From NCBI GenBank assembly GCA_044892525.1, contig CM097886.1, positions 110,918,001 to 110,982,000 on the forward strand: a stretch of DNA of 64,000 nt. The letters run 5' to 3'. Both the position numbers and the translations under genes were made by a program. Shown one piece after another: positions 3,264 through 20,292 of the stretch. Below the pieces are notes generated by a model. It was not told the DNA's origin. It worked only from the letters and a program-made list of their open reading frames with translations, and made no database searches. This stretch comes from Schmidtea polychroa (lineage: Eukaryota). Position 1 is the stretch's first letter; every line of letters begins with the position of its first letter.

Positions 3264-3464
3264 AAGACGGGCAACAAATTAAAAAGAATATTGTAATAAA
3301 TTGTGAAGTCATTCAGTAAATTACAACAAAGTAATAACATATTTCGGAAATATTTCAACAGATGTAAAATATTTAGGCAAATTGTTACAAGATTATAAAA
3401 ATATTGCAACAAAGTAATAAAATAATACAACATTTTTAACTCTAGAATATACATTGACACAATA

Positions 3465-3890
3465 AAAATTCAAGAAAATTATTTTTACTAGATAAAAATA
3501 CAAAAAAAATTGAAGAAAACATGTGTGTATTACACACAACATACGAGACATTTCTAATCAATCCATTTTATAGAAAATTAAATTTTATCTATATAATATA
3601 TAAATAATATTCCAAGAAAATTACATTAACTACATGAAAAAATACAAATTTATCGTAAAAACATGTATATATTACACACAAAACAAGATACATAATTTTT
3701 AATCAAGCTATTTTATAGAAAATTAAATTTTATCTATATAATATATGAATAAAAATCCAAGAAAATTACGTTAACCACGCGAAAAATACAAATTTATCGT
3801 AAAAACATGTGTTTATTACACACAAAGCGACAAACTAAAATTATAATTGCGCCATTTTGTAGAGAATTAAATTCTGCCTATACATGGTTA
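3465..3890. repeat. ~143-bp tandem repeat, 3 degenerate units
   Basis: CAAGAAAATT...AAAAATACAAA...AAAACATGT...ATTACACACAA recurs with ~142-145 bp period. Confidence 0.75.
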
Positions 3891-4269
3891 CACCTAAATC
3901 CCAATCGGACAAAGAGAAAAGAGACAAAGGGGTGAAAAAGAGAAAAAACAGTAGAGTAGGGTAACATGTGAACCCGGGAACAAAGAACTATTACATAATT
4001 GATGATGTCACGAAGGAAATTACGCCATACTCCCGGAGAGGGGTATTTTTAATTTTTTTAAAATTTTTTAAATTACATAATAAAGAACTATTACACAATT
4101 AAGGCGCATTACGTAACAAAGGCATATTACAAAATAAAGACATATTACGTAATAAAGACATATGACTCATCGATTTAAACAAAGACATTACGTGATAAAG
4201 ACACATCATTAATTGGGGAAAATGGAATGTTTTAAATTAATTTGGAGCCTGATTGTCTGATATGATATT

Positions 4270-4531
4270 AGTAGTGAGGAATCTATGCACCCCAGCACCC
4301 CCACCCTCAAAAAAAACAGCGCTATTGACCCATATTTTCCACATTTATATGCTTTTTTACCCCATATTCTTCACTTTTTTTAACTTTTAAACTTTGTCCC
4401 CTATTGCCATTAACCCTTAATTTCTTCCCTTAAAAGTAAAAAAGTTCGGAATAGATGTATTTATAGATTAGTAATTCCGAGAAAAGGTAACGGGGTGCAT
4501 AGATTCCTCACTACTTGGTCTTAAGGATTTA
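4270..4531 (+). repeat. Left terminal inverted repeat of the Polinton
   Basis: Reverse complement of 19181-19444; by eye identical except an A8 vs A10 homopolymer. Confidence 0.96.
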
Positions 4532-4934
4532 ATGTTATAAGGATTTAATGTTATAAGAATATCAGATTACCTAATTCATAATGATCTAGGTCGCCTGATC
4601 ACCTTAAGGTTTTGAAAGTTTTAAAAATAAAAAATTTTATGAAAATAGTAAAACTGCTCTGAGGGGACAGTGGTATTTTTTTTTTTTTCACTGTCCCCTC
4701 AACAGTTTTTTTTTGATCCGGATCATTTTTTTTTTTTTTATTTATCAACCTCTTTCGTTTATCAAATCTCTTCCAATATACAAGCTGGCCAGACTCATAC
4801 ATCAGAATCAATCCGATAATAGCAGCACGCCTTATTATTCGCTTCTCGCTCACGAAGTCGATTTCAACGGCGTTTTAAGCGTGCTGCTCGAAAGTACAAA
4901 TGAATTCGAAAGCGAATCCGAAAGAGGTCCGAAA

Positions 4935-5024
4935 ACAACTGAGAAATAAATGTGCACATTACCGGGATCGATCCGGGGGTGTTCGAAAGACAGGTGGCGA
5001 TAATTACCGGTTCGCCACCATCAC
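4935..5024 (-). ncRNA. Putative tRNA-like / Pol III structured RNA (unit 3)
   Basis: Minus strand: A-box-like TGGCGAACCGG, D-arm-like GCGA/TCGC, 7-nt loop CTTTCGA on a 3-bp stem, T-arm-like CCGG-ATCGATC-CCGG, TTTT at ~4933-4936. No acceptor stem. Confidence 0.4.
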
Positions 5025-5206
5025 CCGTTTCAATATTTTTTTTTTCATATTTATGTTTAAAAAATAATTAATTTATAAAAAAATAAAATAAAATAAAATA
5101 AATAAAATAAAATATACAAGTACTTTATAAATATAAGATACCCACACTATTTTCAATATTATTTTCAAATTTTTAATATTATTTTATGTTGAAAAAAAAA
5201 CTAACC

Positions 5207-5503
5207 TCAGATGTGATTTGAACCACTATCCATTTGAACCACTGCGCCATCAAGGTTTGGATTTTTGTCATTTTTTAGACTATAAATAATCGATTCAAGT
5301 TCTTTAACTCTTTCCTGTAATTGTTTCATTTTCTTCAATCTTATATCAGCAACATCTACAGCCTTCATATAAAAATGTCGATACTTTTCATTATCTACCA
5401 TCAACTCTTTGATGTATTCTAATGGTTCTTCTTCTCTTCTTTTCATTCTCTTATGTTTAACTTCATTCAATTCATTTCTCATTCTTTCTTTTAACTCATC
5501 CAT
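5207..5503 (-). CDS. Small basic/coiled-coil orphan protein (98 aa) of the Polinton
   Basis: Intact ORF with the TAAAAATG start context shared with other element genes; charged helical heptad pattern. Confidence 0.65.
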   Translation of the reverse strand: MDELKERMRNELNEVKHKRMKRREEEPLEYIKELMVDNEKYRHFYMKAVDVADIRLKKMKQLQERVKELESIIYSLKNDKNPNLDGAVVQMDSGSNHI

Positions 5504-5674
5504 TTTTATAAATATTTTTTTATTGGATATATTAATTTTTGGTAGCTTAAGTTAAAACGTTTTTGATCTTAAATTTCCAAGAGTTGCCGTTGACCAATCA
5601 CCTTTAAAATTTGTACAAGTACTAAATCGAGTATGCTGATCAATATTTTGTTTAAAAAAAAATTTGAAAAGAAA

Positions 5675-5747
5675 TGACCGAAATGGGATTTGAACCCATT
5701 GGTATTGGCAATGCAGTCGAGTGCTATTACCACTAAGCTATTAGAGC
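5675..5747 (-). ncRNA. tRNA-Cys(GCA)-derived 73-nt tRNA-like RNA gene (unit 1)
   Basis: Invariant tRNA positions in register (T8, A14, G15, D-loop GG, T33, G34C35A36, G53-T-T-C-A-A, C61). Perfect T-stem ATGGG/CCCAT, acceptor 5/7 pairs, broken anticodon stem (2/5), oligo-T downstream. Confidence 0.75.
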
Positions 5748-5917
5748 TATACTCAATATAAAATAAGTTGTTAATGTGTGACTATTTATTGATGAAATTA
5801 ATAATTAATTATTCATTTTCTCGACAACTACCACTCAGATCCATCTGAAAATTTAAATATATACTAAAATCAGTACGCTGAATCAGATTCCGTTGAAAAA
5901 AAAATATCGAAAAAAAT

Positions 5918-5990
5918 TGACCAAAATCGAAAATTGAACCCGGACTCCCGGTGATAAAATTGAAGCCTATTCCCACTCCGCTATAATGGC
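5918..5990 (-). ncRNA. Second 73-nt tRNA-like RNA gene (unit 2), apparently paralogous to unit 1
   Basis: A-box TAGCGGAGTGG, B-box GGTTCAATT, ends GGTCA followed by T7. Shares ATAGC..AGTGG.AATAG, GGGTTCAA and TTT.GGTCA with unit 1; stems weak. Confidence 0.6.
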
Positions 5991-6046
5991 TTACATAATA
6001 TATTTAATTAATCCTATTGTGTGTGTGTAAATTTTAATATATAAAA

Positions 6047-7339
6047 ATGAATAATATAAATCTTAAAATTCAAGAAAAAAATAAATTAAATCTTGATTAT
6101 AATAAAGAATTTACTCATGAAATCAAGAAAAACGATGTACTTAAAATCTCCCCAACTTCAGGATCTATTGCAAACTTAAATCGTAGGGGTGATATAGTTT
6201 TTCAATCTCTTCAAACATCAAACCCTATAGATATTTGTAATGCCAAATTATATTATAAAATCGAATTAGAAATTGAAGCAAACAAAGATATAACCCTAGA
6301 AAATAATTTCTTTCCAAATTTATTCTCCAATATGAGATTAAAACTAGGATCATCAGAAATTGAAACTGTTTTACATCCGGGAGTATATTCTACAATGTTA
6401 AATTTTATTTTGACTGGTTGTGATTATAAAAATGAATATGGTGAATTAACAGGCTGGATTCCTGATGTTAATAAAGGAGATTTAGATAAAGATGGTTTAG
6501 ATATAAATTATGGTTACTATAAAAGAGCTGAACTTTATAAATCTAAAAAATTTGAAGGTTATTTTGAATTAAAACACTTGTTTGGATTCCTTCAAAACTA
6601 TAATCGTATACTTCATAATGTTTTTATAGAATTCATCTGTAATAGAGTAGAAGGTGATAAAAGATTGTTCTATGGAGCTGTAGATACAAAAGCTAAATTA
6701 AAATTATCAACACTTGAATTACATATACCTGAATGGACATTAAACCCACATTCTGAGATTAAACTCCTTGAAAGATTAAATTCCAACAAGTCTATAAATG
6801 TAAATTATTTAAATAGAATCTGTAGTGAATTTAGTATGACAGAGGGTTCAACATATTCTATAAAGGTAGCAAATTTAGCATACCGACCAAGATATATCTT
6901 GATTGGATTCAAAGAAACAGATTCATCTTTCCAAAAAAATAACAATCTATTTATTCAAAAGATTGGAGATGATAATTTAAAAACAATACAAATTCAATTA
7001 AATAGTTCTTATTATCCAATAAATAGAATGGAATTTAATATTGAAAATAATGAAAACATATTCCCATATCTAAATTATATTGAAACATGTTATGATTTCA
7101 AAGTTGAACCGCAATTAGGTTTAGAAGATTTCAAAAATTTATATTCTATATTTTGTATAAATGTTTCAGACCAAGATGATCGCCTAGCCATAAATAATGT
7201 TGATGTTACACTTCATGTAACAAAGGATTCTAATTTTAAAGCTAAAGTATATACATTAATATTAGAAGAAAAGAAAATAGAAATGAAATTATATAGTGGA
7301 AAGATTTCAATAATCGAAAATGTTAGGGGAGATTCTTGA
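6047..7339 (+). CDS. Major capsid protein (double jelly-roll, hexon-like), 430 aa
   Basis: Size, beta-rich composition and Polinton MCP-like motifs (SP...LN..G.I.F, NNFFPNLFS.MRL..G..EIE, PRYILIGF, FCINVS). Confidence 0.85.
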   Translation: MNNINLKIQEKNKLNLDYNKEFTHEIKKNDVLKISPTSGSIANLNRRGDIVFQSLQTSNPIDICNAKLYYKIELEIEANKDITLENNFFPNLFSNMRLKLGSSEIETVLHPGVYSTMLNFILTGCDYKNEYGELTGWIPDVNKGDLDKDGLDINYGYYKRAELYKSKKFEGYFELKHLFGFLQNYNRILHNVFIEFICNRVEGDKRLFYGAVDTKAKLKLSTLELHIPEWTLNPHSEIKLLERLNSNKSINVNYLNRICSEFSMTEGSTYSIKVANLAYRPRYILIGFKETDSSFQKNNNLFIQKIGDDNLKTIQIQLNSSYYPINRMEFNIENNENIFPYLNYIETCYDFKVEPQLGLEDFKNLYSIFCINVSDQDDRLAINNVDVTLHVTKDSNFKAKVYTLILEEKKIEMKLYSGKISIIENVRGDS

Positions 7340-7368
7340 TATAATCCCTGATATTTTAACATTTTAAA

Positions 7369-8769
7369 ATGTCTTTAAATAAATATTGGAGATGTGAAAC
7401 TTGTAATTGTCAAGTTACAAGACATCATAAAGCAAGCCATCTTAAAACTAAAAAACATACAGTAGGTGACCTAATTCCACGAGCTGGAGGCGATTTGCAA
7501 TCTTCAAAAACAACATCTTCAATATTAAAACCTTTTACTACAGAAAAATATCCAGGTGAAAGACATTTATTTAAACACAACTACACCGGACCAGGAACAA
7601 GATTAGATATTAGATTAGATGAAAATAATAATCCCAAACAAGGAGAAGAACCAATAAATAGAATTGATCAAGCAGCTTTAAAACATGACATTGCATACAA
7701 TTCAACAAATCTTAGAGATAGACATGTTGCAGATGTGAATTTAATACATGATTTAAATAGTATCCAAAATCCATCAACCCAAGAAAAGATTCAAAGAGCT
7801 CTAGTTAAATTAGCAATGAAAGGTAAGATTTTCATAGGCTTAGGACACAGTCCGATCACCATGGGTGCAAGACTTCCTAGGAAAGCAAAAGATGTTGCTT
7901 ATAAAAAGATTATCGAACAAGCAGAGATTGAAAGATCCCTCGAGAGTACAGCCAAGACTAGTTTACAAACCCCAACAGAATCAGAAATAAAATATGCAAA
8001 GGAATTACACCATGAATTTAGAAAAAATAAAAAATATTTAAAAGTTCAAGTACATGAAAAAGATCAAACATGGTCTGCAGATTTAGCCAAATCATCAGAC
8101 CCTGAAAAATATAAAATAATTTTAACTGTAATAGATTTATATACAAGATTTGCTTTTGCAAGATGTTTAGAAAATAAAACAGGATATTCTATTACAGAAG
8201 CATTTGAAAATATATTTGAAGAAAATCAAAGAATCCCAAAATATTTATGGTGTGATAAAGGAACAGAATTTTATAACAAAGTTTTTACAAAGTTTTTAAA
8301 TGAAAATGATATTAAATTATATTCAACAGAAAACGAAGGAAAAGCAGTCGTAGTTGAAAGATTAAATAGAACATTAAAAAATAAAATGTGGAAATATTTT
8401 ACTACTATTGGAAAACAAAAATGGAACAATGAATTGTTACAAAAGATTGTAAATGAATATAATAATGATGTACATAGTTCTATAAAATTAACACCTTTAA
8501 ATGCTTCCATGAAGCCTGAAACCATTAAAGTGGTAAATATTGAAAATGATGTTATTGAAAAACCAAAGTTTAAAATTGGTGACCGAGTAAGAATATTTAA
8601 ATATAAAAATAAATTTGAAAAAGGATTCACAGCAAAATGGACAAATGAAATTTTTATTATAAATAAAAAAAATTATACAACTCCAATAACATATAGCATC
8701 TTTGATTTAAATAATGAAAAAATATTAGGTAGATTTTATAATAATGAACTACAGAAAACAGATTTTTAA
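7369..8769 (+). CDS. int: ZnF-PLA2-retroviral-type integrase fusion protein, 466 aa
   Basis: N-terminal C2H2 finger; parvovirus-type PLA2 motifs YTGPG and KHDIAY; rve DDE triad (WSADL, WCDKGTEF, VERLNRTLK); C-terminal KFKIGDRVRI...W..EIF...Y...EL domain. Confidence 0.93.
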   Translation: MSLNKYWRCETCNCQVTRHHKASHLKTKKHTVGDLIPRAGGDLQSSKTTSSILKPFTTEKYPGERHLFKHNYTGPGTRLDIRLDENNNPKQGEEPINRIDQAALKHDIAYNSTNLRDRHVADVNLIHDLNSIQNPSTQEKIQRALVKLAMKGKIFIGLGHSPITMGARLPRKAKDVAYKKIIEQAEIERSLESTAKTSLQTPTESEIKYAKELHHEFRKNKKYLKVQVHEKDQTWSADLAKSSDPEKYKIILTVIDLYTRFAFARCLENKTGYSITEAFENIFEENQRIPKYLWCDKGTEFYNKVFTKFLNENDIKLYSTENEGKAVVVERLNRTLKNKMWKYFTTIGKQKWNNELLQKIVNEYNNDVHSSIKLTPLNASMKPETIKVVNIENDVIEKPKFKIGDRVRIFKYKNKFEKGFTAKWTNEIFIINKKNYTTPITYSIFDLNNEKILGRFYNNELQKTDF

Positions 8770-8780
8770 GTCGACAAGCC

Positions 8781-9586
8781 CTAAAACAAACTTTTCCATA
8801 TTTCAGCTTCTTCTCTATCCAAATAAATATAATTATATTTTTCTTTCCAATGATTATCAACAAACATATCAAACATATTCTTATCAGGTTCAACATTTGA
8901 AAATAAATCATTATAAATCATATTCTTATCACGGCGATCTAATTTAAAAAATATAAAACAATTGGAATTATTTCTTATTGAATTTTTATCTAAAGCATAA
9001 TATGTTTGAGATATATAAATAACATTACAATTATTATGTCGACCTCGTGTAAAGTAACTCTTTTGAATCTCTTGATTTTCATATTAACAACATCATCAAA
9101 TATAACTAGATTCTTTTTATCTTTAGGAAGTAAATCACAATGTAAAACATCTTCAGGTTTATTAGAGAATAAAACTTGAATTGCCTCCTGCCCTTCTTCA
9201 CAAATATAATCATTTTTATTACTAATATCTGATTCTAAAATCTTTTCCTTATACCAATCAACCATATCAAAAGGTTGAAAAACTTCTTCAGGACACCTAT
9301 GTTGATTTTTAAAAATATCAATTATTGCTTTTTTAGTTAATTTATTTTCAAATCCACATTTCAAAAGTTGTAATTCTGGTTGATTTATGGTTGTAGAATA
9401 AAAGATTAAATTATTATAATCTAAAAAATCATCTTCAAGTAACATTCTCAAAACAAGTACATTCTTTCCACATCCAGAAGAACCAACAATTAATAATCTA
9501 AAATTATCAGGAAATACTTTATTATTAAATTTACTCTTATGTCTATTTAAAATTGGTTTCCAAATTATTGGACTTCGTACATCCAT
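8781..9586 (-). CDS. A32/FtsK-like packaging ATPase with a 1-nt frameshift at ~9076-9079
   Basis: Walker A GSSGCGK and Walker B LVIFDD. Adding one A to ATGAAAATC restores NQEIQKSYFTRGRHNNCNVIYISQTYY..IRNNSNCFIFF to TAG at 8781-8783. Likely start ATG at 9586 (CAAAATG), not the TTG at 9625. Confidence 0.9.
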
Positions 9587-9601
9587 TTTGTTTATTATAA
9601 A

Positions 9602-10180
9602 ATGACAACTGAAGAATCTTTGCAAGAATTAATAAATTCAAATAAAAATAAATCAGTAGTAATTGATGGTAAAAAATATTTTATTGGAAAACATGTAAAA
9701 GAACAAGTTAGAGCGAAGATCCACGAAGCTAAAGAAGGTGGCATTCTTCCATTAGCTGCTTTAATACCTGCAATCATTGCTGGTTTATCAGGTGCTGCTG
9801 GAATAGCTGGAGGAATTGCAACTACAGTTCAAAAAGATAAAGAATCTCAAAAGACAGACCTAGAAAAAGAAAAACTACAAACTGAAATCGATTCAATGAA
9901 GAAGGTAGGGCAAGCTAAAGGGGGAGTGTCCGTTGGAAAGGGTCTCTATCTTAATCCATATGAGGGGAGTCGGCAAAAGTCTCAGGGCAAAGGTCTCTAT
10001 CTTGATCCTTATAAAGGTAGAGGTTTAAATGATTTTTTAAAAAATCAAATTTCTACATCTGAATCTTTATCTTCAAAAGATAAAGAAGATTTAAAAAAAA
10101 TATGTAAATCTTTAAAGAATGGATGCCTTTGTAAAACTAAAAATGGTAAAGGATTATACTTGAAGCCCTTCGAACTATGA
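9602..10180 (+). CDS. Adenovirus pX-like core / membrane-active precursor protein, 192 aa
   Basis: KEGG-ILPLAALIPAIIAGLSGAAGIAGGIA resembles the adenoviral pX C-terminus (GG-ILPLLIPLIAAAIG); three GKGLYLxP(Y/F) repeats. Confidence 0.65.
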   Translation: MTTEESLQELINSNKNKSVVIDGKKYFIGKHVKEQVRAKIHEAKEGGILPLAALIPAIIAGLSGAAGIAGGIATTVQKDKESQKTDLEKEKLQTEIDSMKKVGQAKGGVSVGKGLYLNPYEGSRQKSQGKGLYLDPYKGRGLNDFLKNQISTSESLSSKDKEDLKKICKSLKNGCLCKTKNGKGLYLKPFEL

Positions 10181-10202
10181 TACCATTTTTGATACCATTA
10201 AA

Positions 10203-11084
10203 ATGGTATATGAAGAAAGATTAGCACTTTTAAAAAAATTACAATCAGAACAAGATAAATATAATAAAAAAGATACAACTCAACATGCTGAATCTATAAT
10301 ATTAAATGAGGTAATAACACAACAACAGGGGCCAACAATTAAAGCTATAAAAGAGTTGGAAGATTTCAATGAGCAAGCAAAATTTAAAGAGTTAGAAGAT
10401 AAAAAACAAAAAATAAAAGAACTAGAGTGGCAGGATAAAGAAAAAGAATCCAGTAAAAACCATCCTGAAAGAAATCAAAGAAAACGCAGAAGAATTTCTA
10501 ATGTGGAAGAAGAAGAAATGTTTTTAAAAACAAAACCTCTTAAAGTTGATCCTAAAATTAGAGATGATTTACCTCCTTCAATTAGACCCACATTTAATAC
10601 TAATACTGAAGGATATCAAATAATAACAATTAATAAACAAAACTTTACTTTATATTCAAATTCAGAAAATAAATCACGTATTCATTCACAAAATGTTTAT
10701 AATAATGAATATTTAGACTTTGAATTTACAGATGATTTTTATAGATTACTTTGTGGATATTCTTCAGATGATGTTGAAGAAATTAAAAAATATTTAAATT
10801 TAATAAGATTAATAAGAGCTAGTTCTAAAGCAAAATATATTCAAGATTTAAAGAATTATTTAAATAAAAATGAAAAGGGTTATGTTGTTACAGAGGGAGA
10901 GGGATTAATTAGTGAAGGTGGTAAACCAAATCCCATCAATCTTTTTATTGAATTAAGAAAACTATTAGCTGCAAGGAAAGCAGGACATAATAATTTAGAT
11001 TCTGATATTTTAAAGATTTCTAAAGATTTGTTAAAACAAGGAATAATTTCAAAAGATAAATTTAATAAGTATACGAAGTTATAA
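10203..11084 (+). CDS. Conserved Polinton protein of unknown function, 293 aa
   Basis: Intact ORF with TAAAATG start. C-terminal GEGL...ELRKLLAARKAGHNN...I..ISKDLLKQGII matches a motif I recall in Polinton ORFs. Confidence 0.7.
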   Translation: MVYEERLALLKKLQSEQDKYNKKDTTQHAESIILNEVITQQQGPTIKAIKELEDFNEQAKFKELEDKKQKIKELEWQDKEKESSKNHPERNQRKRRRISNVEEEEMFLKTKPLKVDPKIRDDLPPSIRPTFNTNTEGYQIITINKQNFTLYSNSENKSRIHSQNVYNNEYLDFEFTDDFYRLLCGYSSDDVEEIKKYLNLIRLIRASSKAKYIQDLKNYLNKNEKGYVVTEGEGLISEGGKPNPINLFIELRKLLAARKAGHNNLDSDILKISKDLLKQGIISKDKFNKYTKL

Positions 11085-11106
11085 ATACGAAGTTTTAAAA
11101 TACAAA

Positions 11107-11511
11107 ATGACTCCTTCAATATTAGATTTTTTAAAAACATTTGGAATAAATGCAAAAACAAATTTTGATTTAAAAGATTATGCAAATTATTTAAATTTAA
11201 AAATTAAAATATTAATGAATGATGAATTATCAAGTCTGGAGAGTCCCCTGAATATAATAATCAATTATCAAAATTCAAATGAAAAAGGATCTCATTGGGT
11301 TTGTATATATAAGAAATCTATCTACTTTGATTCTTTTGGGATTAAACCTACTAAAGAAGTTGAAGATTATCTCTTGAGGGGTTCTCCGATTGATTCCCCA
11401 AATGGTTATACTTTTAACTCTTTACAAGTTCAACCTTTGAATACTAAAATATGTGGTATTTTAAGTTTATATGTTTTGTATAGATTGAAAGGGGCATACG
11501 CAGGATTTTGA
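11107..11511 (+). CDS. Adenain-like cysteine protease (maturation protease)
   Basis: GSHWV, YFDSFG, QVQ and CGILSLY give the His/Asp/Gln/Cys catalytic set. The C-terminus may be frameshifted at GGGG 11491-11494. Confidence 0.92.
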   Translation: MTPSILDFLKTFGINAKTNFDLKDYANYLNLKIKILMNDELSSLESPLNIIINYQNSNEKGSHWVCIYKKSIYFDSFGIKPTKEVEDYLLRGSPIDSPNGYTFNSLQVQPLNTKICGILSLYVLYRLKGAYAGF

Positions 11512-11605
11512 ATCTATAATTCAAGAAATTTATAATGATCTAGAATCTCTACTATAAGGATTTTTACTATAAGGATTTTTACTATATGAATTTACTACTA
11601 AAGAA

Positions 11606-12370
11606 ATGGAGCTTCACAACCCTCCGGAAGATAATTTTAAAAAAATGGTAAACATAATGTCAGATAAATATTCAAGAACTTTATCTATAAATTCAAAAGA
11701 ATCAGACTTTACTATAAACTTTCAAGATTCAATTAAATTAGATCAAAATTTAAATTATGAATTGGGGCTATTATGGTTTTGTGCTTATAATACTATTTTT
11801 AATATAACTAAAGATAATAATAAATTTACTATTCAAACTCGTGATGGGCATAAACCAGAAATTATAACAATAGAACCTGGGGCATATGAGATAAAAGATT
11901 TAAATGATATACTTTCTAAAAAAACAAATGAAGGTATTAAAATTAAAATGGATATACCAACTTCAAAATGTGTAATGACTTTGAAGAATATAAAAATTAG
12001 TTTTTTAGATAATTGTTTCTTTCACACAGTTTTAGGATTTAAACCTATGGATATAACAATAAAAGAAGATAAAATAATAACATCAGAACATATTATAAAA
12101 ATAATAAATACAAACACAATAAATATTCATTGCGATTGTATAACAGGTTCTTATAATAATGGTAAACAAACAAATGTTTTATATTCCTTTCCCTCAAACA
12201 CAGTTCCTATGGGATATAAAATAGTTGAAAGAATGAATCCTCCAAATTATTTACCTTTATGTAGAAAATTTATAATGGATATTAATTTTAAAATTCTTAA
12301 TCAAGAAGGAGAATTGATTGATTTTAATGGAGAAGAGATTTCAATGTATTTACATTTGAAACAGGTTTGA
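11606..12370 (+). CDS. Minor capsid protein (penton, single jelly-roll), 254 aa
   Basis: Polinton penton motifs YNTIFNIT..NNKF, G.YEI.DL, VLGF, INIHCD.I.GSY.NG...VLYSF, P.YLPL, Q.G.LIDFNGE.I...LHL. Confidence 0.9.
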   Translation: MELHNPPEDNFKKMVNIMSDKYSRTLSINSKESDFTINFQDSIKLDQNLNYELGLLWFCAYNTIFNITKDNNKFTIQTRDGHKPEIITIEPGAYEIKDLNDILSKKTNEGIKIKMDIPTSKCVMTLKNIKISFLDNCFFHTVLGFKPMDITIKEDKIITSEHIIKIINTNTINIHCDCITGSYNNGKQTNVLYSFPSNTVPMGYKIVERMNPPNYLPLCRKFIMDINFKILNQEGELIDFNGEEISMYLHLKQV

Positions 12371-12394
12371 AGATTCATTTTAAATTATTAATAA

Positions 12395-13405
12395 ATGAGT
12401 TCTTATATTCCATGTAATAGAGGTGGTGGAACAATAAAAACAGGGTTTAATACAGAAGAAATATTAACTTTAACAGAAAATAAATATATTAATGAAATAG
12501 GTGATTCAATGAAGGGTGATTTAATTTTAAATGGACACAAGATAAAAGAATTATCTTTTCCAACTGATGAAGCTGATGCAGTTAATAAGAAATATGTAGA
12601 TGGTGTTAAAAAATATACTGATTTAACAACAACAAGAATTGAAAGTTCATTAACAACAAAAATTGATTCAATGGAATCAAAGCTTAATAATATCGAACAA
12701 CGATTTAATGATAAATTTGACAAGTTACAAAGTCTGTTAACTGAACAAGTTGTAAAGTTAAATACTGCTATATTAAATTCTAAAGATAAACAAATTATGA
12801 ATACTAAATTTAATACAATATATAAAATAATAAATGAGATGATTACATCATTTAATAAAAGAATTTCAAATTTAGAGTCTCATGGAACACACATTAACAC
12901 CACACATAGTATTAGAAAAAGAGCTGCTGAATTAGAACAGAATAAAACATTATTACCCCATACATATAAACATTTTATAGAACCAAGTTTAATAACAACA
13001 AACAGTAAAGAATGGGGTGTTTTTATGGTTGTAAAAATTATTGATCCTTATTTCTTTTTGTTTGATGATGATAATGAAAGAATGAAATGGTTTGTGAAAT
13101 GTGATTATAATAGTATGCTTGAAAAGGGTGATGTTATAATGACTAGTTATGATTTACCACACGGAGATTGGTATGTTAATACTCATTCACATGGACTACA
13201 TAAAGTTAAAAGTAAGAATATTCATTTTTCTAGTTCACTTGTACAATATATAGATTTAATATTTTATGAAAAAAAGGTTGATGTTGATGAAGTTCGTAAA
13301 GCATTGAGAGAATTGTATAAAGATATCCTCTCAACAAGAGTTTCTTTTGATATCCGAGTATTGGTGCCAGATGGTGCTCAGAAGAATAAAGTCTTATTTT
13401 TTTAA
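12395..13405 (+). CDS. Putative fiber / receptor-binding protein, 336 aa
   Basis: GDSMKGDLILNGHKIKEL..P....DAVNKKYVD tail-fiber-type motif, then a long coiled coil and a beta-rich C-terminus; lies directly after the penton gene. Confidence 0.55.
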   Translation: MSSYIPCNRGGGTIKTGFNTEEILTLTENKYINEIGDSMKGDLILNGHKIKELSFPTDEADAVNKKYVDGVKKYTDLTTTRIESSLTTKIDSMESKLNNIEQRFNDKFDKLQSLLTEQVVKLNTAILNSKDKQIMNTKFNTIYKIINEMITSFNKRISNLESHGTHINTTHSIRKRAAELEQNKTLLPHTYKHFIEPSLITTNSKEWGVFMVVKIIDPYFFLFDDDNERMKWFVKCDYNSMLEKGDVIMTSYDLPHGDWYVNTHSHGLHKVKSKNIHFSSSLVQYIDLIFYEKKVDVDEVRKALRELYKDILSTRVSFDIRVLVPDGAQKNKVLFF

Positions 13406-13413
13406 TTATTAAA

Positions 13414-14025
13414 ATGGAAGAAGTAAGAGAAGAAAAAATTTACCCAGAATTGAGATCATCAGGATATTATTCCGAAGGTCACAAAGGTTCCAAGGCCTCG
13501 GCTCCCACAGAACTTGAAATTATGAGAGTAAAAGAATTTAAATCAGAAACCTTACATATAAAAGATTTATTAAAGCATTATAAAAAAATTAAAAATAGAT
13601 GGAATAAAGGGAATACAGTTTTAAAAGTTATAGGTTATTCTTTAGGATTTGCATCTGCAATATTAACAGTTATTTTACCCATAACTTTACCAGTTGTTAC
13701 TCTTGCACCTGTAATACTTGGAAGTATTTCTGTGGCTGATGGTTTCTTAACTGAAATAGTTTCATTATCTTATACTTCTAAAAAGAAAAGTTTATATAGA
13801 GAAGTTTGTTTATCAATAGAATTAGGAATCTCTAAATTATTTTTATTTCAATTAAAAGCTTTGGAAGATGGAATCCTGACAGACGAAGAAATAATGAAAT
13901 CAAATCAAATAATACAAGATATAAAGAATGAGGTTATAAGATTAAAAAGGGAGGGCATGGTGGCTAATGTTATAAGTAATAAAAAAACATCTCGAGAAAA
14001 ATGGTTAAAGAATTCTTACTTATAA
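13414..14025 (+). CDS. Polinton membrane protein (two hydrophobic helices), 203 aa
   Basis: IYPEL...SAP N-terminus, hydrophobic VIGYSLGFASAILTVILPITLPVVTLAPVILGSISV, and an LEDG.L..EE motif; intact ORF. Confidence 0.7.
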   Translation: MEEVREEKIYPELRSSGYYSEGHKGSKASAPTELEIMRVKEFKSETLHIKDLLKHYKKIKNRWNKGNTVLKVIGYSLGFASAILTVILPITLPVVTLAPVILGSISVADGFLTEIVSLSYTSKKKSLYREVCLSIELGISKLFLFQLKALEDGILTDEEIMKSNQIIQDIKNEVIRLKREGMVANVISNKKTSREKWLKNSYL

Positions 14026-14103
14026 AATGGGTGTATTTTTAAAAAAGTAGATCAGGTTGCTATAGTTGCTTAAATTAATTGTCGACATTTTATTATTAAA
14101 AAA

Positions 14104-14658
14104 TTAAATATCGTTGAAAGCCAACCTATGAATCATTAATTTATGATATTTAAATTCTTTATCACTTAGACCTTTTATATATTCAGGATCAGTATTAAAA
14201 TATTTAAGTTCTAAACATATAGGATTAAAAACTTGAGAATATAAAGGTTTCTCGATTTCTCTCTGGGGATAAATAATTTCAACATTATAAATATCAAGAT
14301 CAGTAATCTTTGTATCATATAACTTCTTCAACTTTTCTAGATTTTTTATTATAGGGATTAAATTATTTCCAATAGGTAGAGTTGTCTTTAAATCACTTAG
14401 TATGAATCTCTTATCATCATAATTTGATAATGATACTTTTTGAGATTCTATCAAGTGAATATCATGGTTTTCACTTTTAAGTTGATGTATTTCATCAATT
14501 TTATCTTTATGATTTGGGTTTAATGTATCTATATAATCTTGATGAGAAAGATTCTTTGCAACCACTCTCTGTATTCCTTTACATCTGTTATCCTTTAAAT
14601 TAGTAATATTTTTTATAATTTCAAAAATGTTATTTTCTTGATTTTTAGTTTCCATCAT
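14104..14658 (-). CDS. Stand-alone paralog of the pPolB C-terminal domain, 184 aa
   Basis: Aligns without gaps to the PolB tail from KGIQ through HKLM (about 60% identity by hand over ~150 aa). Has its own TAAAATG start and no catalytic motifs. Confidence 0.85.
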   Translation of the reverse strand: MMETKNQENNIFEIIKNITNLKDNRCKGIQRVVAKNLSHQDYIDTLNPNHKDKIDEIHQLKSENHDIHLIESQKVSLSNYDDKRFILSDLKTTLPIGNNLIPIIKNLEKLKKLYDTKITDLDIYNVEIIYPQREIEKPLYSQVFNPICLELKYFNTDPEYIKGLSDKEFKYHKLMIHRLAFNDI

Positions 14659-14682
14659 TTTATAGTGTTAAAATTCTAATTC

Positions 14683-17600
14683 TTAGAGCAGTCGTAATTG
14701 ATTTATAATTATTTCTGCAGTAATGCTTTTTAACATTAATTTATGTGATTTAAAGTCTTCTGGTGTTAGTCCTTGGATATATTCAGGATCAGTATTAAAA
14801 TATTTAAGTTCTATAGGTTTTATATTTTGAACTTGATTATATAAAGGTTTAGGAATTAATATTTCAGGATATTGGATTTCTACTTTAGCAAGTTGAAGGT
14901 CTGTAATCTCTAGGTTATAAATTTCATTTATTTTATCAAGATTTTTTATTATAGGGATTAAATCATTTCCAATAGGTAATGTTGTCTTCAAGTCAGAAAG
15001 TATAAATCTTTTATCATCATAATTTGTTATAGCAATCTTGTTACACTCTTCAAGATATATATTATGTTTCTCTGATTTAAGATGATGGGTTTTAGCAATT
15101 TTATTTTTATAATTTATATTTAATGAATCTTTATACTCTTGATGTGTGAAGGTTTTTGACACTGATTTTTGAATTCCTTTACTTTTATTTTCTTTATAGC
15201 TTTTCGGGTTTTCAGGGAATGAAGGATATTCAAATGTTCGATCTACTTCAACAGATCCTTCTATTATAAATTTTATTGTATGCTCTTTCATAATTGGTTT
15301 GTCTTTCATTTCAAGAGAATATTGTTTAGGTCTAATAAACACTCCTCCAGTTATTGGAGTATTTGGTTTTTCATCTTTAAAAGTAAACAACTCTCCAGAA
15401 TTGTTTATTAATTTATTTAAGGTTGGATCTTCACGTATTTCTTTTTTGAAATCTTTGCTATATCCTTTTAAAAACATACTATCAGTGTCCATTGCATGCA
15501 TGGATATTCGATCTCCAAAATGTGGTACTAGAACATCATAGTAAGCTTCATACATTTGAAGCTTTGAAAGTTCTAAAATTGAAAACCCTATAAAGATTGG
15601 TTTATTATAAGTTTTTACAGAGTTTTTAATCTCTATGGCTATAAGGTTACTAGAGAATATCTCGGCATTTTTAAATGTGGGCTTTCCAATTATCCAGTTG
15701 TACCTATTAAGGTCTTTGGATGTATTGGTCAAAAGCTCTACACGTGTGTACTTGTCTATATTCTCCATGGTCTTTCCAAAGACCGCATTGTTCAGGAGTT
15801 TGTAAATCATATCAAGAAATGCATTTCCAGCTCTCTTTGCTGCATTTCTTTTCAAAATATTTCCCTCTATGAATTTTTTCATAAAAGGGGCTTGTCGAAA
15901 TTTAATAATGGAATGTACTTTTTTTAAAACCATTCCATGGGAGAGATAAAACTGAAGGAGTCTATAATGACAAAGGTAATCAGTTTTATCCGTCTGATCG
16001 CATAAAAGTTTTATACAGGGCGATCTATCCTGAGCCATCTGCCAGTCTGAAAGTTCTTCAGTCGAGATCTTTCTTCTTACTGGAGCAAATGGAAAGAATC
16101 TTGTCCTGGATTTTATTTCATTGGGATATTCAAGATCACATTCTATGACATATCCATATTGTGAATTCTTTGGTGTTTTTAGAATTTCTTGTATTAATTC
16201 CTCAGTGGGCTCTTCCCAGGTGAACTTGCCAATTGGAAGGTATTGAGTCATTACTCCTCCATATAAAGCTGTTGCATCTATATACATTATTTCAGAAGGA
16301 TTAGAAAGACCTTCCAGTATTTCCTCACGATCTTCTGGGTTTGTTATTTCTACATATAGAGCATCAGTATCTTTGAAAAATTTAGGATAAAGAGTTGTAA
16401 AATTATTAGCATTTATTTCTCTATTCCCTTGTACTGAAGAAATACCTCCTCTAATATTATGTTTATATACATTAAACATATCAAGGTCAACTAATAATTC
16501 AATGGTTTTATTTCTTTCTGCTATGTCTTCATCGGTCCATATGCTATATAATAATATATCCCAAGCTAGAGAGGGAGCGGTTATATAATTATAAGGTTTT
16601 AATTCAAAAGCTTTTGAAAATGTCTCGAAGTAATCAGCTAAGATATAAACATCTAAGGAAAGATACATGTCAGTATATTCTCCAAGGTTTCTACAGTTGA
16701 AAAGATTCCACATTTTAAGTGCACGGGAATATTCCTGATCAGAAATCCCTGATTGTGTTAAAACAGAAAAGAAATCTTCTTGAGCTGGGAGTAATTCATT
16801 ATATTTTTCAAAGGAGTCTATATAATCATATGGATAGATTCCTTTTGCTAGACAGGTATTATATTCCTCTAATGGAATATTGTTTTTTAATAACACATGT
16901 TCTTTTGTATATTTAAAATCCTCAGGGTTCATAGTTTTTGCAATGCCATCCAAAGACATCCCTAAGAAATTTAAGGAGTCCAAAAACTTAAAGCATCCAT
17001 ATTGAATGCTTTTATATTTTTCTTTTGTAAGTCCAATAACCTTGAAAGAGTTTTTAGCATTTGCAGCTAGATGTTTAATGAACAGGTGAATATCATAGCC
17101 AAAAAGATTGTGAAATATAAATGGTATGTGTGTTGGTTTTTTACAATTGAGATTACAATTTTTATGGGCCGCTCCTCTGTAATTATTTTCTATTTTAAAA
17201 TGATCATGGTCAGGAACCTTAAGTTCACTAGTTGACTCCTCATCCTCGAACTCTTGTTTGCACATCCAGCAGTGTGTTGCATTTTTATATTCTTCCTCTT
17301 GTTCTTCTGAAAAATTCATAGGAAAGTTGGATTTTAATATTATATATAATTCATGTTCTAGATTATTTAAAGTTTCAACAAAATGGTCTAGAGTCTCTTT
17401 GTCAGAAGTTCCCCTAAATGAATATTCTCTAGATTCTACAAGTTCTGGATAATTACTTTTGAAAAACATTTTATAAGCAGAGGGTAATTGTTTTGTTAGT
17501 TTTACAGTATTAGTTTTTGTTCGTCTTAGTTTTACATTTATAGCTTCAAAATCACAATAAACCACTCCCAATGCTTCTAATAGATTGGAATAGTTTTTAA

Positions 17601-19068
17601 ACCTCATATTAGCATTTTTCTTGTGTGGCATTTTTATTAAAGCAGGTTGATTCTTACAACAGAGTCTCTCATGTTTAATAGCAGCAAGTTTTGAAGTTGA
17701 ATGATATAAACATCTTTTACAACATATGCCTCCACGAATGAGTGTGTTTCCTTTCATAAAACTTTGAAAATTCTTTATTAAGATATAATGAAGTTTTTTA
17801 TCTAACATAGTGCCTCCGGACGCAGTGCTTTCTGCTTCTGGTTCTAATGAAATGCCTTCTTCTGCTTCCATAACCTTCGGGTGAATACTTTGAACCTCTT
17901 CACCATATTCTTCTCCATCAAACTCTTCGTCTGCTTTACCTTCTTCTAATATTAAAAGATCTACTTCTCTCTTTTCATCTGAGATTTCCATATTAGAAAT
18001 GTAAATAGGAATAATTTGTTTATAATTTTTATATTTTCTAGTTTTTGTAATTTTGGTTGGAATGAATTGATAAATATTAATTTTAAGATTATTTAATTTT
18101 TCAAATGCTAGAACATCTTCAATTTTCATTGGGTGGGAAAAATCTTTTGGATATATTAATTCAGATTCATATTCTTCATATTTTTGAACTCTCTGTGGGT
18201 TAGTTGCTTGAGGATGTAAGTGTGCAAGTATTGACCATTGAAAACATTTATTATCTTTATTCTGTACATTTATAACATGGTTGGAGGTGAATGGTGTATG
18301 AATAAAAGATTTAGGATTTGGTGGTGCACCTCTCCAGTATTCAATCTCTATGTTTTGAAAAGAGTGGAATCTTAAATTAGATTCTCCTAGTTCTTGTTCC
18401 ACCTGTTCTTGTTTTTCTTCCAATTCTTTAGCTATATCATTAACAAGTTTATTTCCTGCTTTTGTAGAAAATAAATATTTATATGAGGTTTCAATTTTTA
18501 CATCTAGAGGCATTGCGATCGAATCATCTCCTCTCCAGTATTTTGCATTTCCTGTAAATTTAACTTTTATAACATTAAATCTTGATCTACCAAATTTTTT
18601 TATAGCATCATCCATTGATGATATTATTTTTTTTTTATTTTCTCTTATATATTGCATGATTGATCTGGGTCCTCGTTTTACTTCTGCAATTACATCGGTG
18701 TGATTGAAGTTGTCCCAATTAAACTCTAGTTTTTCAGCTTTTTCAGTCATTGAGTTTGAATCAGAATCTTTTGCTTCAAGACCACAATCTTCTATGTGTC
18801 TTAAGTAAAAAGATTTTATCTTCATATTTTTTCCACATGCTGAACATTCGAATATTTCTCTGTTTTTAGGAACTCCAATACAATTTTTAAAATATTTCTT
18901 ATAACCTGAAAATAAATATCTATCCTTACATTTAGTACAGATTTTGGAATTAGTGTCATCTAGTGTGTTAGCTTTTATTAAATGGTCTTTTGATTTTTTA
19001 TGAGATGTTAAAGCAGTTTTATTTTTAAAATATTTTTCACAAATTTCACAATTGAAAATAGCTTCCAT
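14683..19068 (-). CDS. polB: Protein-primed family B DNA polymerase (N-terminal ZnF, terminal protein region, vOTU-like region, Endo VII finger), 1461 aa
   Basis: Exo motifs YCDFE, FHNLFGYD, YLSLDV; Pol motifs DATALYG, KLLNNAVFGK, MDTDS; EndoVII-like CWMC..DHDH..YRGAAH..CN; NKCF...HY Cys/His pair. Confidence 0.96.
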   Translation of the reverse strand: MEAIFNCEICEKYFKNKTALTSHKKSKDHLIKANTLDDTNSKICTKCKDRYLFSGYKKYFKNCIGVPKNREIFECSACGKNMKIKSFYLRHIEDCGLEAKDSDSNSMTEKAEKLEFNWDNFNHTDVIAEVKRGPRSIMQYIRENKKKIISSMDDAIKKFGRSRFNVIKVKFTGNAKYWRGDDSIAMPLDVKIETSYKYLFSTKAGNKLVNDIAKELEEKQEQVEQELGESNLRFHSFQNIEIEYWRGAPPNPKSFIHTPFTSNHVINVQNKDNKCFQWSILAHLHPQATNPQRVQKYEEYESELIYPKDFSHPMKIEDVLAFEKLNNLKINIYQFIPTKITKTRKYKNYKQIIPIYISNMEISDEKREVDLLILEEGKADEEFDGEEYGEEVQSIHPKVMEAEEGISLEPEAESTASGGTMLDKKLHYILIKNFQSFMKGNTLIRGGICCKRCLYHSTSKLAAIKHERLCCKNQPALIKMPHKKNANMRFKNYSNLLEALGVVYCDFEAINVKLRRTKTNTVKLTKQLPSAYKMFFKSNYPELVESREYSFRGTSDKETLDHFVETLNNLEHELYIILKSNFPMNFSEEQEEEYKNATHCWMCKQEFEDEESTSELKVPDHDHFKIENNYRGAAHKNCNLNCKKPTHIPFIFHNLFGYDIHLFIKHLAANAKNSFKVIGLTKEKYKSIQYGCFKFLDSLNFLGMSLDGIAKTMNPEDFKYTKEHVLLKNNIPLEEYNTCLAKGIYPYDYIDSFEKYNELLPAQEDFFSVLTQSGISDQEYSRALKMWNLFNCRNLGEYTDMYLSLDVYILADYFETFSKAFELKPYNYITAPSLAWDILLYSIWTDEDIAERNKTIELLVDLDMFNVYKHNIRGGISSVQGNREINANNFTTLYPKFFKDTDALYVEITNPEDREEILEGLSNPSEIMYIDATALYGGVMTQYLPIGKFTWEEPTEELIQEILKTPKNSQYGYVIECDLEYPNEIKSRTRFFPFAPVRRKISTEELSDWQMAQDRSPCIKLLCDQTDKTDYLCHYRLLQFYLSHGMVLKKVHSIIKFRQAPFMKKFIEGNILKRNAAKRAGNAFLDMIYKLLNNAVFGKTMENIDKYTRVELLTNTSKDLNRYNWIIGKPTFKNAEIFSSNLIAIEIKNSVKTYNKPIFIGFSILELSKLQMYEAYYDVLVPHFGDRISMHAMDTDSMFLKGYSKDFKKEIREDPTLNKLINNSGELFTFKDEKPNTPITGGVFIRPKQYSLEMKDKPIMKEHTIKFIIEGSVEVDRTFEYPSFPENPKSYKENKSKGIQKSVSKTFTHQEYKDSLNINYKNKIAKTHHLKSEKHNIYLEECNKIAITNYDDKRFILSDLKTTLPIGNDLIPIIKNLDKINEIYNLEITDLQLAKVEIQYPEILIPKPLYNQVQNIKPIELKYFNTDPEYIQGLTPEDFKSHKLMLKSITAEIIINQLRLL

Positions 19069-19180
19069 TTTTAAAAGAATTTTTTGGTTGGATACGATGT
19101 TTTGGTTTTGATATTAATTTTTATTAATTTTTAAATCCTTATAACGTTAAATCCTTAAATCCTTAAATCCTTTAAATCCT

Positions 19181-19444
19181 TAAATCCTTAAGACCAAGTA
19201 GTGAGGAATCTATGCACCCCGTTACCTTTTCTCGGAATTACTAATCTATAAATACATCTATTCCGAACTTTTTTACTTTTAAGGGAAGAAATTAAGGGTT
19301 AATGGCAATAGGGGACAAAGTTTAAAAGTTAAAAAAAGTGAAGAATATGGGGTAAAAAAGCATATAAATGTGGAAAATATGGGTCAATAGCGCTGTTTTT
19401 TTTTTGAGGGTGGGGGTGCTGGGGTGCATAGATTCCTCACTACT
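19181..19444 (-). repeat. Right terminal inverted repeat of the Polinton
   Basis: Reverse complement of 4270-4531; followed by TSD GATATT. Confidence 0.96.
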
Positions 19445-20292
19445 GATATTTTAAGTCCAATAAATATTACAAGTAAAGTACTTCAGAAAGAAAATTTTAA
19501 TGTTTCGGAAGCTACAACAGTACTTTCTAATAGTATTGACTATTTAAAAAAGTACAGAACAGATGATAAGTTTAAGTTATTCAAGAGGCCAAAGAAATTG
19601 CACTACAATTAGAAATTTAGCCAGAGTTTGAGAAAATAAGAAATCGTCGCAGAAGAAAGCAATTCGAAGTAATCAATGATGCAGCACAAAATTTTAAGAA
19701 TAATTTTTTAAAAAAATCCTTGATCAAGCAACTGTGTCATCAAATGATAGGTTTACGTTGATTCGGGAGCACAATAAAAATTTTNNNNNNNNNNNNNNNN
19801 NNNNNNNNNNNNNNNNNNNNNNNNNNNNNNNNNNNNNNNNNNNNNNNNNNNNNNNNNNNNNNNNNNNNNNNNNNNNNNNNNNNNNNNNNNNNNNNNNNNN
19901 NNNNNNNNNNNNNNNNNNNNNNNNNNNNNNNNNNNNNNNNNNNACTGCGGGAACCGTATAAATCCGCACGGCCGTTTGCATGCAGTAATGAGACACAAAA
20001 TATGCAAAAGCGCCCCGCAGCGAATCTTGCTACACTCTTAAAATATATCGGAATATATATGCTACGTTAATTATTAGCATCATCTTTGGCCAACGTTTTC
20101 ATAGCGCTAAGAGGTGAAAAGAGTTTTTCAAAATTAAAACTAATTAGAACCTATATACGCTCTACGATGAGACAAGAACGATTAGATGCTCTGGCCACTT
20201 TGCCAATTGAACTTGAAATTGCCAAAAATTTAAATGAAGAGGAATTAATTGATAGGTTTGCTACCATAAAGGCTCGAAAGATTAGTTTTTAA
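19445..20292 (+). pseudogene. hAT (ZMYM1-like) transposase remnant interrupted by the Polinton and by an N gap
   Basis: The frame LIV*YDI (left flank, ~4249-4269) continues as DILSPINITSKVLQ (right flank). The C-terminal dimerization segment GEKSFSKLKLIRTYIRSTMRQERL is at 20086-20292. Confidence 0.8.
19785..19943. other. Assembly gap (others at 53785-53913 and 61945-62095)
   Basis: Runs of N. Confidence 0.99.

Follow-up and report, generated by a model that had tools for sequence, protein, structure and literature searches.

Inverted copies of the terminus nested within the terminal repeats of a Polinton clade in Schmidtea polychroa

The question raised by this locus is why a Polinton should carry, some 250 bp inside each of its ends, a second and inverted copy of its own terminus. 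The window (the whole 64,000-nt stretch of Schmidtea polychroa DNA that was analysed) contains at positions 4270-19444 an intact-looking element of 15,175 bp. It is a Polinton/Maverick by the features given in the available text of PMC8097293, because a GATATT duplication is found at the outer copies of the terminus and the capsid, rve integrase and protein-primed family B polymerase (pPolB) all score over the Pfam cut-offs; terminal inverted repeats (TIRs) with (AGT)2 termini and a 6-bp target-site duplication are likewise present. The features of the two ends are as follows.

4264-4269, no strand: left target-site duplication GATATT, the same hexamer as at 19445-19450
4270-4293, + strand: left outer copy, the true element terminus, starting with (AGT)2; 32 of 42 sister pairs show an exact 6-bp duplication at the outer copies
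4294-4491, no strand: left spacer, 198 nt, in fixed orientation and not folding significantly by itself (spacer z -0.7 to -1.2)
4492-4515, - strand: left inner copy, the exact inverted terminal 24 bp with its tip towards the body; precise tip junctions in 4 sisters
4516-4612, no strand: remaining TIR, short tandem repeats specific to this type of end; its right bound follows the 343-bp TIR seen in sisters
4620-5277, no strand: subterminal region common to sister families (~85-92% identical)
19197-19220, + strand: right inner copy, an exact 24-mer match
19221-19420, no strand: right spacer, 200 nt
19421-19444, - strand: right outer copy, the true element terminus, an exact 24-mer match
19445-19450, no strand: right target-site duplication GATATT

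The terminal 24-mer is exact at all four positions, and a search of the window allowing up to three mismatches returned only these four matches and none in each of 100 shuffles, which confirms the four copies reported in a preliminary description of this DNA. The cassette of outer copy, spacer and inner copy measures 246 bp on the left and 248 bp on the right, where an A-run is longer; this too is congruent with the length of ~246 bp first given. The GATATT duplication adjoins the outer copies only. The repeat that was said to bound each TIR is real, but it does not bound it: the TIR runs past the inner copy, to ~4560 in the window copy and to a length of 343 bp in several sisters, and the cassette is therefore the outer part of the TIR. 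A perfect hairpin (GAGGGGACAGTG, a T-run and the complement) lies at 4660-4700, in the subterminal region of all sister families. Immediately to the left of the element, at 3461-3882 of the window, are three imperfect direct repeats of ~144 bp, and a nearby host gene consists of a single ORF with a TRAF/MATH domain (23762-24346).

The genes recognized in the element are listed below; family 2 is a sister family of roughly 450 elements.

6047-7339, + strand: double jelly-roll major capsid protein (PF21738, E 1.4e-26)
7369-8769, + strand: rve integrase with an N-terminal PLA2-like domain (PF00665, E 2.1e-11; PF08398, E 1.6e-8)
8990-9586, - strand: packaging ATPase-like ORF (PF04665, E 0.003, below the cut-off)
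14104-14658, - strand: C-terminal remnant of the sister family's pPolB (97% aa identity to the family-2 pPolB, 58% to the element's own)
14683-19068, - strand: protein-primed family B polymerase of 1,461 aa (PF03175, E 1.3e-11; 57% aa identity to the family-2 pPolB)

The ATPase-like gene of the window copy looks broken, because the ORF at 8990-9586 departs from the frame of the sister copies at about codon 170-176 (two-frame tblastn in sisters). The ORFs at 11107-11511 and 11606-12370 had no match in the Pfam scan of the window ORFs; by position and motif they are putative protease and penton genes. No Rep family, and hence no Rep nickase, was found among the window ORFs scanned with Pfam. Polinton pPolBs carry a terminal protein, according to the available part of bioRxiv 10.1101/2024.03.18.585575.

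The nested end is family-wide and is not an artefact. In the assembly (G000) the exact 24-mer occurs 2,868 times and the inner junction 1,478 times, or ~740 elements' worth. Sister copies might have lacked the inner repeat, a possibility that the preliminary description had raised; among 100 consecutive ends on contig C1, chosen by their inner junction, 99 keep the outer copy, though in 4 it is shortened by 2-14 nt, one is without it, and all 100 stand in a single orientation. Exact 6-bp duplications are found at the outer copies in 32 of 42 neighbouring sister pairs. The family is also very young, because divergence from the window copy (computed on 97 of the 100 ends, three truncated ends being left out) is only 0.3-0.5% per site. 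Inherited variants sit in the spacer and are often common to both ends of one element, a pattern that fits long-range TIR homogenisation. Substitution per site in these 97 ends is 0.0032 in the inner copy versus 0.0031 in the spacer; the inner copy is thus not measurably better conserved, and since so young a family gives the test no power, purifying selection within it was set aside as evidence.

Orientation is equally uniform. Normal junctions number 1,408 exact matches in the assembly and flipped junctions none; no flipped junctions were found in the older subfamily type T3a, and orientation is fixed in all 28 complete ends of older relatives. The parvovirus-like flip-flop proposed at the outset is consequently rejected for integrated copies. 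One window-type end (L110; G000:C1:10877591) is without the outer copy and has variant sequence beside the inner copy. At L036-L038 (G000:C1:4843024-4871410) an element is followed by a partial second copy with an identical outer flank; this is a local tandem duplication and not an array with a common cassette. The public runs X5, X7 and X9 cover the common subterminal region and not the cassette interior, which is a lack of cover only, and the window's end type may be confined to some host lineages. The public runs listed as carrying the sequence include no RNA run. Searches of viral contigs with the 24-mer, the capsid and the integrase gave no matches; the integrase was found in six short metagenome contigs.

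A first reading, which confined the inner copy to the window's family, was rejected once older relatives, reached via matches to the capsid family, showed nested ends. Among 30 consecutive loci of the 165 with their inner junction, 28 have the outer copy 242-287 bp away and two are truncated; inner and outer sequence types are identical in 23 of these 28 ends. A further end type gave 17 matches, all with a partner at 242-244 bp. The survey of related Polinton TIRs that the preliminary description had suggested thus finds the inner copy in related types also: an internal repeat of its own terminus is present in each of six further terminal variants, which sit on no fewer than three additional polymerase lineages (~25-30% diverged). 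Nesting is a feature of the whole clade and not of the window's family alone.

Inner and outer copies have changed together. In a comparison of one natural end per type (8 ends) at positions 7-24 of the terminus, the outer copy and its own inner copy are 94-100% alike in seven of the eight, while the window's outer copy is only 33-61% like the inner copies of the other seven types. The match is exact and flush to the terminal base in every type. Spacer identity is 45-56% between the window's type and the rest, and 45-66% between the main types. When 146 loci were scanned and only pairs within six mismatches kept, 106 of 113 cassettes were of the same type inside and outside. A one-base subvariant of type T5, at position 21, is present in both copies of the polymerase-side end (L354/L355 and L381/L382), which reveals that local matching does occur; in one element the right outer copy agrees with the local inner copy and not with the left outer copy. 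An inner-copy variant from run X1 had no exact match in the assembly, which made the co-variation test on that variant void.

The end type tracks the polymerase lineage, and the capsid and integrase are nearly common to all. Relative to the window's element, the polymerases of the various end types are ~69-75% identical at the nucleotide level, the capsids 95-98% and the integrases 87-97% at the amino acid level, the latter across ends that share little beyond their first 6-7 bases. Because the polymerase lineages separate where capsid and integrase are nearly identical, these sequence comparisons point to the replication side. Ends could be located in two of five more distant Polinton (pPolB) groups of the same genome, and none of the five ends obtained from these two groups has an inner copy. 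Mirror-image pairs of pPolB genes, ~9-10 kb apart on long identical arms, occur at L197/L198 and L204/L205; their located ends are without the inner copy.

The inner copy is nevertheless optional, since it was deleted twice in family 2, which still amplified. The terminus of this family gives 942 matches, of which only 27 are inner junctions. Among 22 family-2 ends without the inner copy, four have lost 26 bp between short direct repeats, in 16 the loss is larger and in one there is a further deletion; one did not align. An imperfect continuation of the arm remains in such ends, and they therefore represent loss and not gain. L088/L089, considered as a 274-bp mini-element, was rejected as such and is a family-2 end that retained the inner copy.

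Mismatch is tolerated as well. Type T5 has 98 matches, the first 30 of which were examined. All eight polymerase-side ends are matched; four of six capsid-side ends, plus three of three unassigned ones, combine a new outer with an old inner copy at 3-4 mismatches, and these are the seven mismatched among the 113 cassettes. In them the outer copy follows the far end of the element, and in the one element aligned the crossover lies ~115 bp into the spacer. T5 represents a swap caught halfway. Local matching is therefore neither instant nor required at both ends.

The window's family is likewise a recombinant, in which a new polymerase and new ends have been set on an older body. All four full copies of family 2 have a 10-kb body in common with the window's element at 97-98% nt identity; this body runs to element position ~10,330 and is followed by the pPolB stub and then by a different polymerase (57% aa identity) and different ends. 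The stub ORF at 14104-14658 marks the recombination point at which the polymerase was replaced. Window-type ends also occur on bodies with family-2 polymerases, in about one case in ten (4 of 42 pairs are candidates, and three of three checked were confirmed), from which it follows that the link between end and polymerase in cis is not a strict one.

Breaks occasionally fall precisely at the inner end. The junction test used here detects only inner ends whose second following base differs from the normal G. It identified in the assembly, among about 1,412 exact inner ends, four that are joined to foreign sequence; all four join Polinton body ~1.4-3.1 kb further in, with 0-1 nt of microhomology at the tip. 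L031 and L034 are complete elements, each with its two outer ends and with duplications that match, and are therefore deletions beginning at the inner tip, and the other two are truncated copies joined to family-2-type bodies. A fifth junction, from 4514/4515 to 5177/5178, was present in one contig of public run X1. A control zone across the inner copy gave three matches (one of the four and two short local deletions), and one in the spacer gave two (a short deletion and an insertion of another Polinton end). With a background assumed, as a rough estimate, at 0.15-0.4 breaks per position, P for at least four breaks at the tip is 0.0001-0.005. The junctions may have been made by the integrase or may derive from a released replication product. 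No strand-changing joint or loose end at 4515 was seen among the matches listed for contigs of runs X1-X4, which thus add no support for use of the inner end, and no inner-tip junctions were found in two older subfamilies, which gave three matches, all point changes, and no matches, respectively.

It had also been suggested that the cassette moves by itself as a 246-bp MITE. This is unsupported, and was rejected: no solo cassette with a target duplication was found among the about 1,412 exact inner ends or in the two older subfamilies, and none of the four odd junctions detected joins an inner end to host DNA. A 186-bp outer-to-outer derivative, in which the first 129 bases of the element are joined to its last 60, does exist (L035:954-1139; G000:C1:39253153-39253338); it has its own 6-bp duplication and sits inside another copy of the same family, which indicates that a short piece bearing two ends can be flanked by duplications. 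At L094 (G000:C3:41522923) a window-type cassette has its spacer interrupted by the inserted end of a distant Polinton family.

Modeling of the single-stranded cassette predicts a 24-bp stem, flush with the terminus and closing a long loop of ~200 nt, at -37.8 and -39.4 kcal/mol on the two strands (z-scores -8.4 and -6.8). Predicted folds across end types range from -35 to -57 kcal/mol, and matched types behave alike. The arms should thus be able to pair flush with the terminus on one strand, as an adenovirus-type panhandle origin requires. The spacers contain neither a T- or Y-shaped fold nor internal palindromes and fold no better than shuffles (z -2.2 to +2.8). A longer stem on the 3′-end strand, obtained via G-T pairs, was dropped as evidence; the outer arm there is almost all A/C, and because any transition in such an arm yields G-T pairing the longer stem is uninformative. 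The earlier suggestion that the end could fold back into a terminal panhandle is compatible with all the observations and gains support from the co-variation of inner and outer copies, but the structure is dispensable, and the panhandle itself is a prediction.

What, then, is the inner copy for? Our best explanation, which we put forward tentatively, is that it is an inherited, clade-wide and optional part of an end module that lets single-stranded ends fold into a local panhandle. An exact inverted terminus, held 242-287 bp inside the TIR and matched to its own outer copy, would allow each end of a single-stranded replication intermediate to fold into such a short structure. The flush duplex tip would mimic a genome end for the terminal-protein-primed polymerase, and the folded inner and outer copies could template each other. 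Protein priming from the 3′ tip would copy the spacer in one fixed direction only, and because of this no flip is to be expected. A local panhandle would in this way explain why the match is flush, why end type follows the polymerase lineage, why orientation is fixed and why the breaks are precise; it would also account for dispensability, since the far TIR can pair too. The joint change of the two copies in four or more polymerase lineages and the narrow range of spacing speak for it, and the dispensability in family 2, the T5 mismatches, the lack of a conservation signal, the window-type ends on bodies with family-2 polymerases and the distant groups without an inner copy speak against it. 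We infer that the 24-34-bp stem would form in vivo, that initiation by the polymerase or the repair of ends would use it and that it would confer an advantage; on this model a function of the nested end is likely.

Most of the same facts could be explained if the inner copy were a functionless relic of an ancient template switch or a captured mini-element, the arms being kept alike passively by fold-back template switching. Co-variation requires copying only and no selection; the inner copy was lost twice with no visible cost, mismatched ends were amplified, the young family gives no conservation signal, and more distant groups have no inner copy. Against this, the flush tip and the spacing have been kept through 25-30% divergence of the polymerase and ~50% of the spacer, though deletions arise, and the inner copy is present in the most numerous family, which is also very young (1,478 junctions, ~0.3-0.5% divergence). 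We consider the relic somewhat unlikely. A bolder form of the panhandle proposal is that the end works at two levels, with a long-range TIR racket and a fold-back origin whose arms are matched by selection, together forming a portable 250-bp module that is grafted by its inner tip and drives swaps of polymerase and end. This seems unlikely; if it were true, such swaps made the largest family in the genome.

Also doubtful, and rather improbable on present evidence, is that the inner copy serves in duplex DNA as a second site for a protein (terminal protein/pPolB or integrase) that aids assembly of an end complex, co-variation then tracking that one protein. The scale resembles that of Sleeping Beauty, whose ~220-bp TIR has an outer and an inner site (PMC7827188, in the part available), and the precise junctions at the inner tip reveal either recognition or release as an end. 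The Sleeping Beauty sites, however, are direct, different at their tips and all needed according to the same text, whereas those examined here are inverted, identical and dispensable; and the integrase stays 87-97% identical between types in whose repeats, past AGTAGT, as much as two thirds of the sequence is different.

Hairpin self-priming of the parvovirus kind, in which a folded 3′ end primes the whole element and asymmetric resolution keeps one orientation, is very unlikely. The fold would set the 3′ end at the body boundary, and hairpin priming has been proposed where the virophages and PLVs of protists have palindromic termini (bioRxiv 10.64898/2026.07.28.741278, section 7). Simple terminal resolution, as described in the available part of PMC11575299, yields both flip and flop, against 0 of 1,408 here; the pPolB of these elements is full-length, whereas the protist palindromes accompany non-pPolB replicases; and the spacer has no T-shaped fold. 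Least credible of all, and largely refuted, is a composite transposon or MITE in which a self-mobile cassette flanks the body as IS10 flanks Tn10, because the complete end sequences at both cassette tips and the 186-bp derivative are not accompanied by any duplication-flanked solo cassette, or any joint to host DNA, among the junctions that the test could detect.

The chromosome exit, replication priming and end upkeep of Polintons have long been modelled without a natural system for comparison. This genome offers thousands of ends in three natural states (matched, mismatched and deleted) with nearly the same capsid and integrase, so that the panhandle idea can be examined by a controlled comparison of natural ends. 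Parvovirus-like flipping is ruled out by the counts, as is MITE movement, and a near-unchanged integrase serves ends that have little in common past their first 6-7 bases. Were the inner copy only a relic, it would still be a clear record of polymerase-and-end replacement.

The nested end is real, a variant of a known end architecture and apparently an undescribed one. In the literature searched, which did not extend to the founding paper of Kapitonov and Jurka (2006), repeat libraries or preprint supplements, we found no account of a Polinton TIR with a second copy of the terminus inside it; the available part of PMC8502044 makes no mention of it. The elements resemble the Polinton/Maverick (adintovirus) group in their length of ~15 kb, in TIRs that start with (AGT)2, in the 6-bp duplication and in having a pPolB, an rve integrase, a double jelly-roll capsid protein and an ORF that is ATPase-like though below the Pfam cut-off, but the available text of PMC8097293 mentions no second terminus, exact and inverted, that lies ~250 bp within the TIR and co-evolves with it. 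The panhandle is a standard, still unproven model of displaced-strand initiation and the restoration of end homology. In the adenovirus/PRD1 panhandle (PMC11886824) and the Polinton racket (PMC4196379), as far as the available texts describe them, paired end copies likewise re-form a duplex origin on the displaced strand; there it is the far genome ends that pair, whereas here each end could also pair locally.

Halocafeteria virophages and PLVs (bioRxiv 10.64898/2026.07.28.741278) also possess self-complementary TIR tips, with a proposed fold-back in replication. Their palindromes are near-contiguous (52 nt, with a search gap limit of 10) and accompany non-pPolB replicases, whereas here 24-34-bp arms enclose a 200-nt loop in pPolB elements, and co-variation, losses and orientation can be followed over >1,400 ends. 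Internal palindromes occur in some casposon TIRs (PMC4046053, available part). The AAV/parvovirus ITR, in the available text of PMC11575299, shares self-complementary ends and four arm copies per genome; unlike it, the ends described here have no flip/flop, no Rep nickase found, no internal palindromes and a protein-primed polymerase. The IR/DR of Sleeping Beauty (PMC7827188, available part) likewise has ends of ~220-250 bp in which the terminal motif occurs twice, once outside and once further in, but all four of its sites are needed and the inner one is uncleaved, while here the inner tip is an occasional break point. Finally, replication-module turnover has been described for polintons and PLVs (PMC11296320; bioRxiv 10.64898/2026.10.13.758929, both in the parts available), and the likeness lies in the swapping of polymerase and ends onto a common capsid module. 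Here the swap is visible in the act, in an old polymerase stub and half-converted ends, and it differs from the turnover so described in that it can be traced nucleotide by nucleotide between families living in one genome, where the inner copy marks the extent of conversion.
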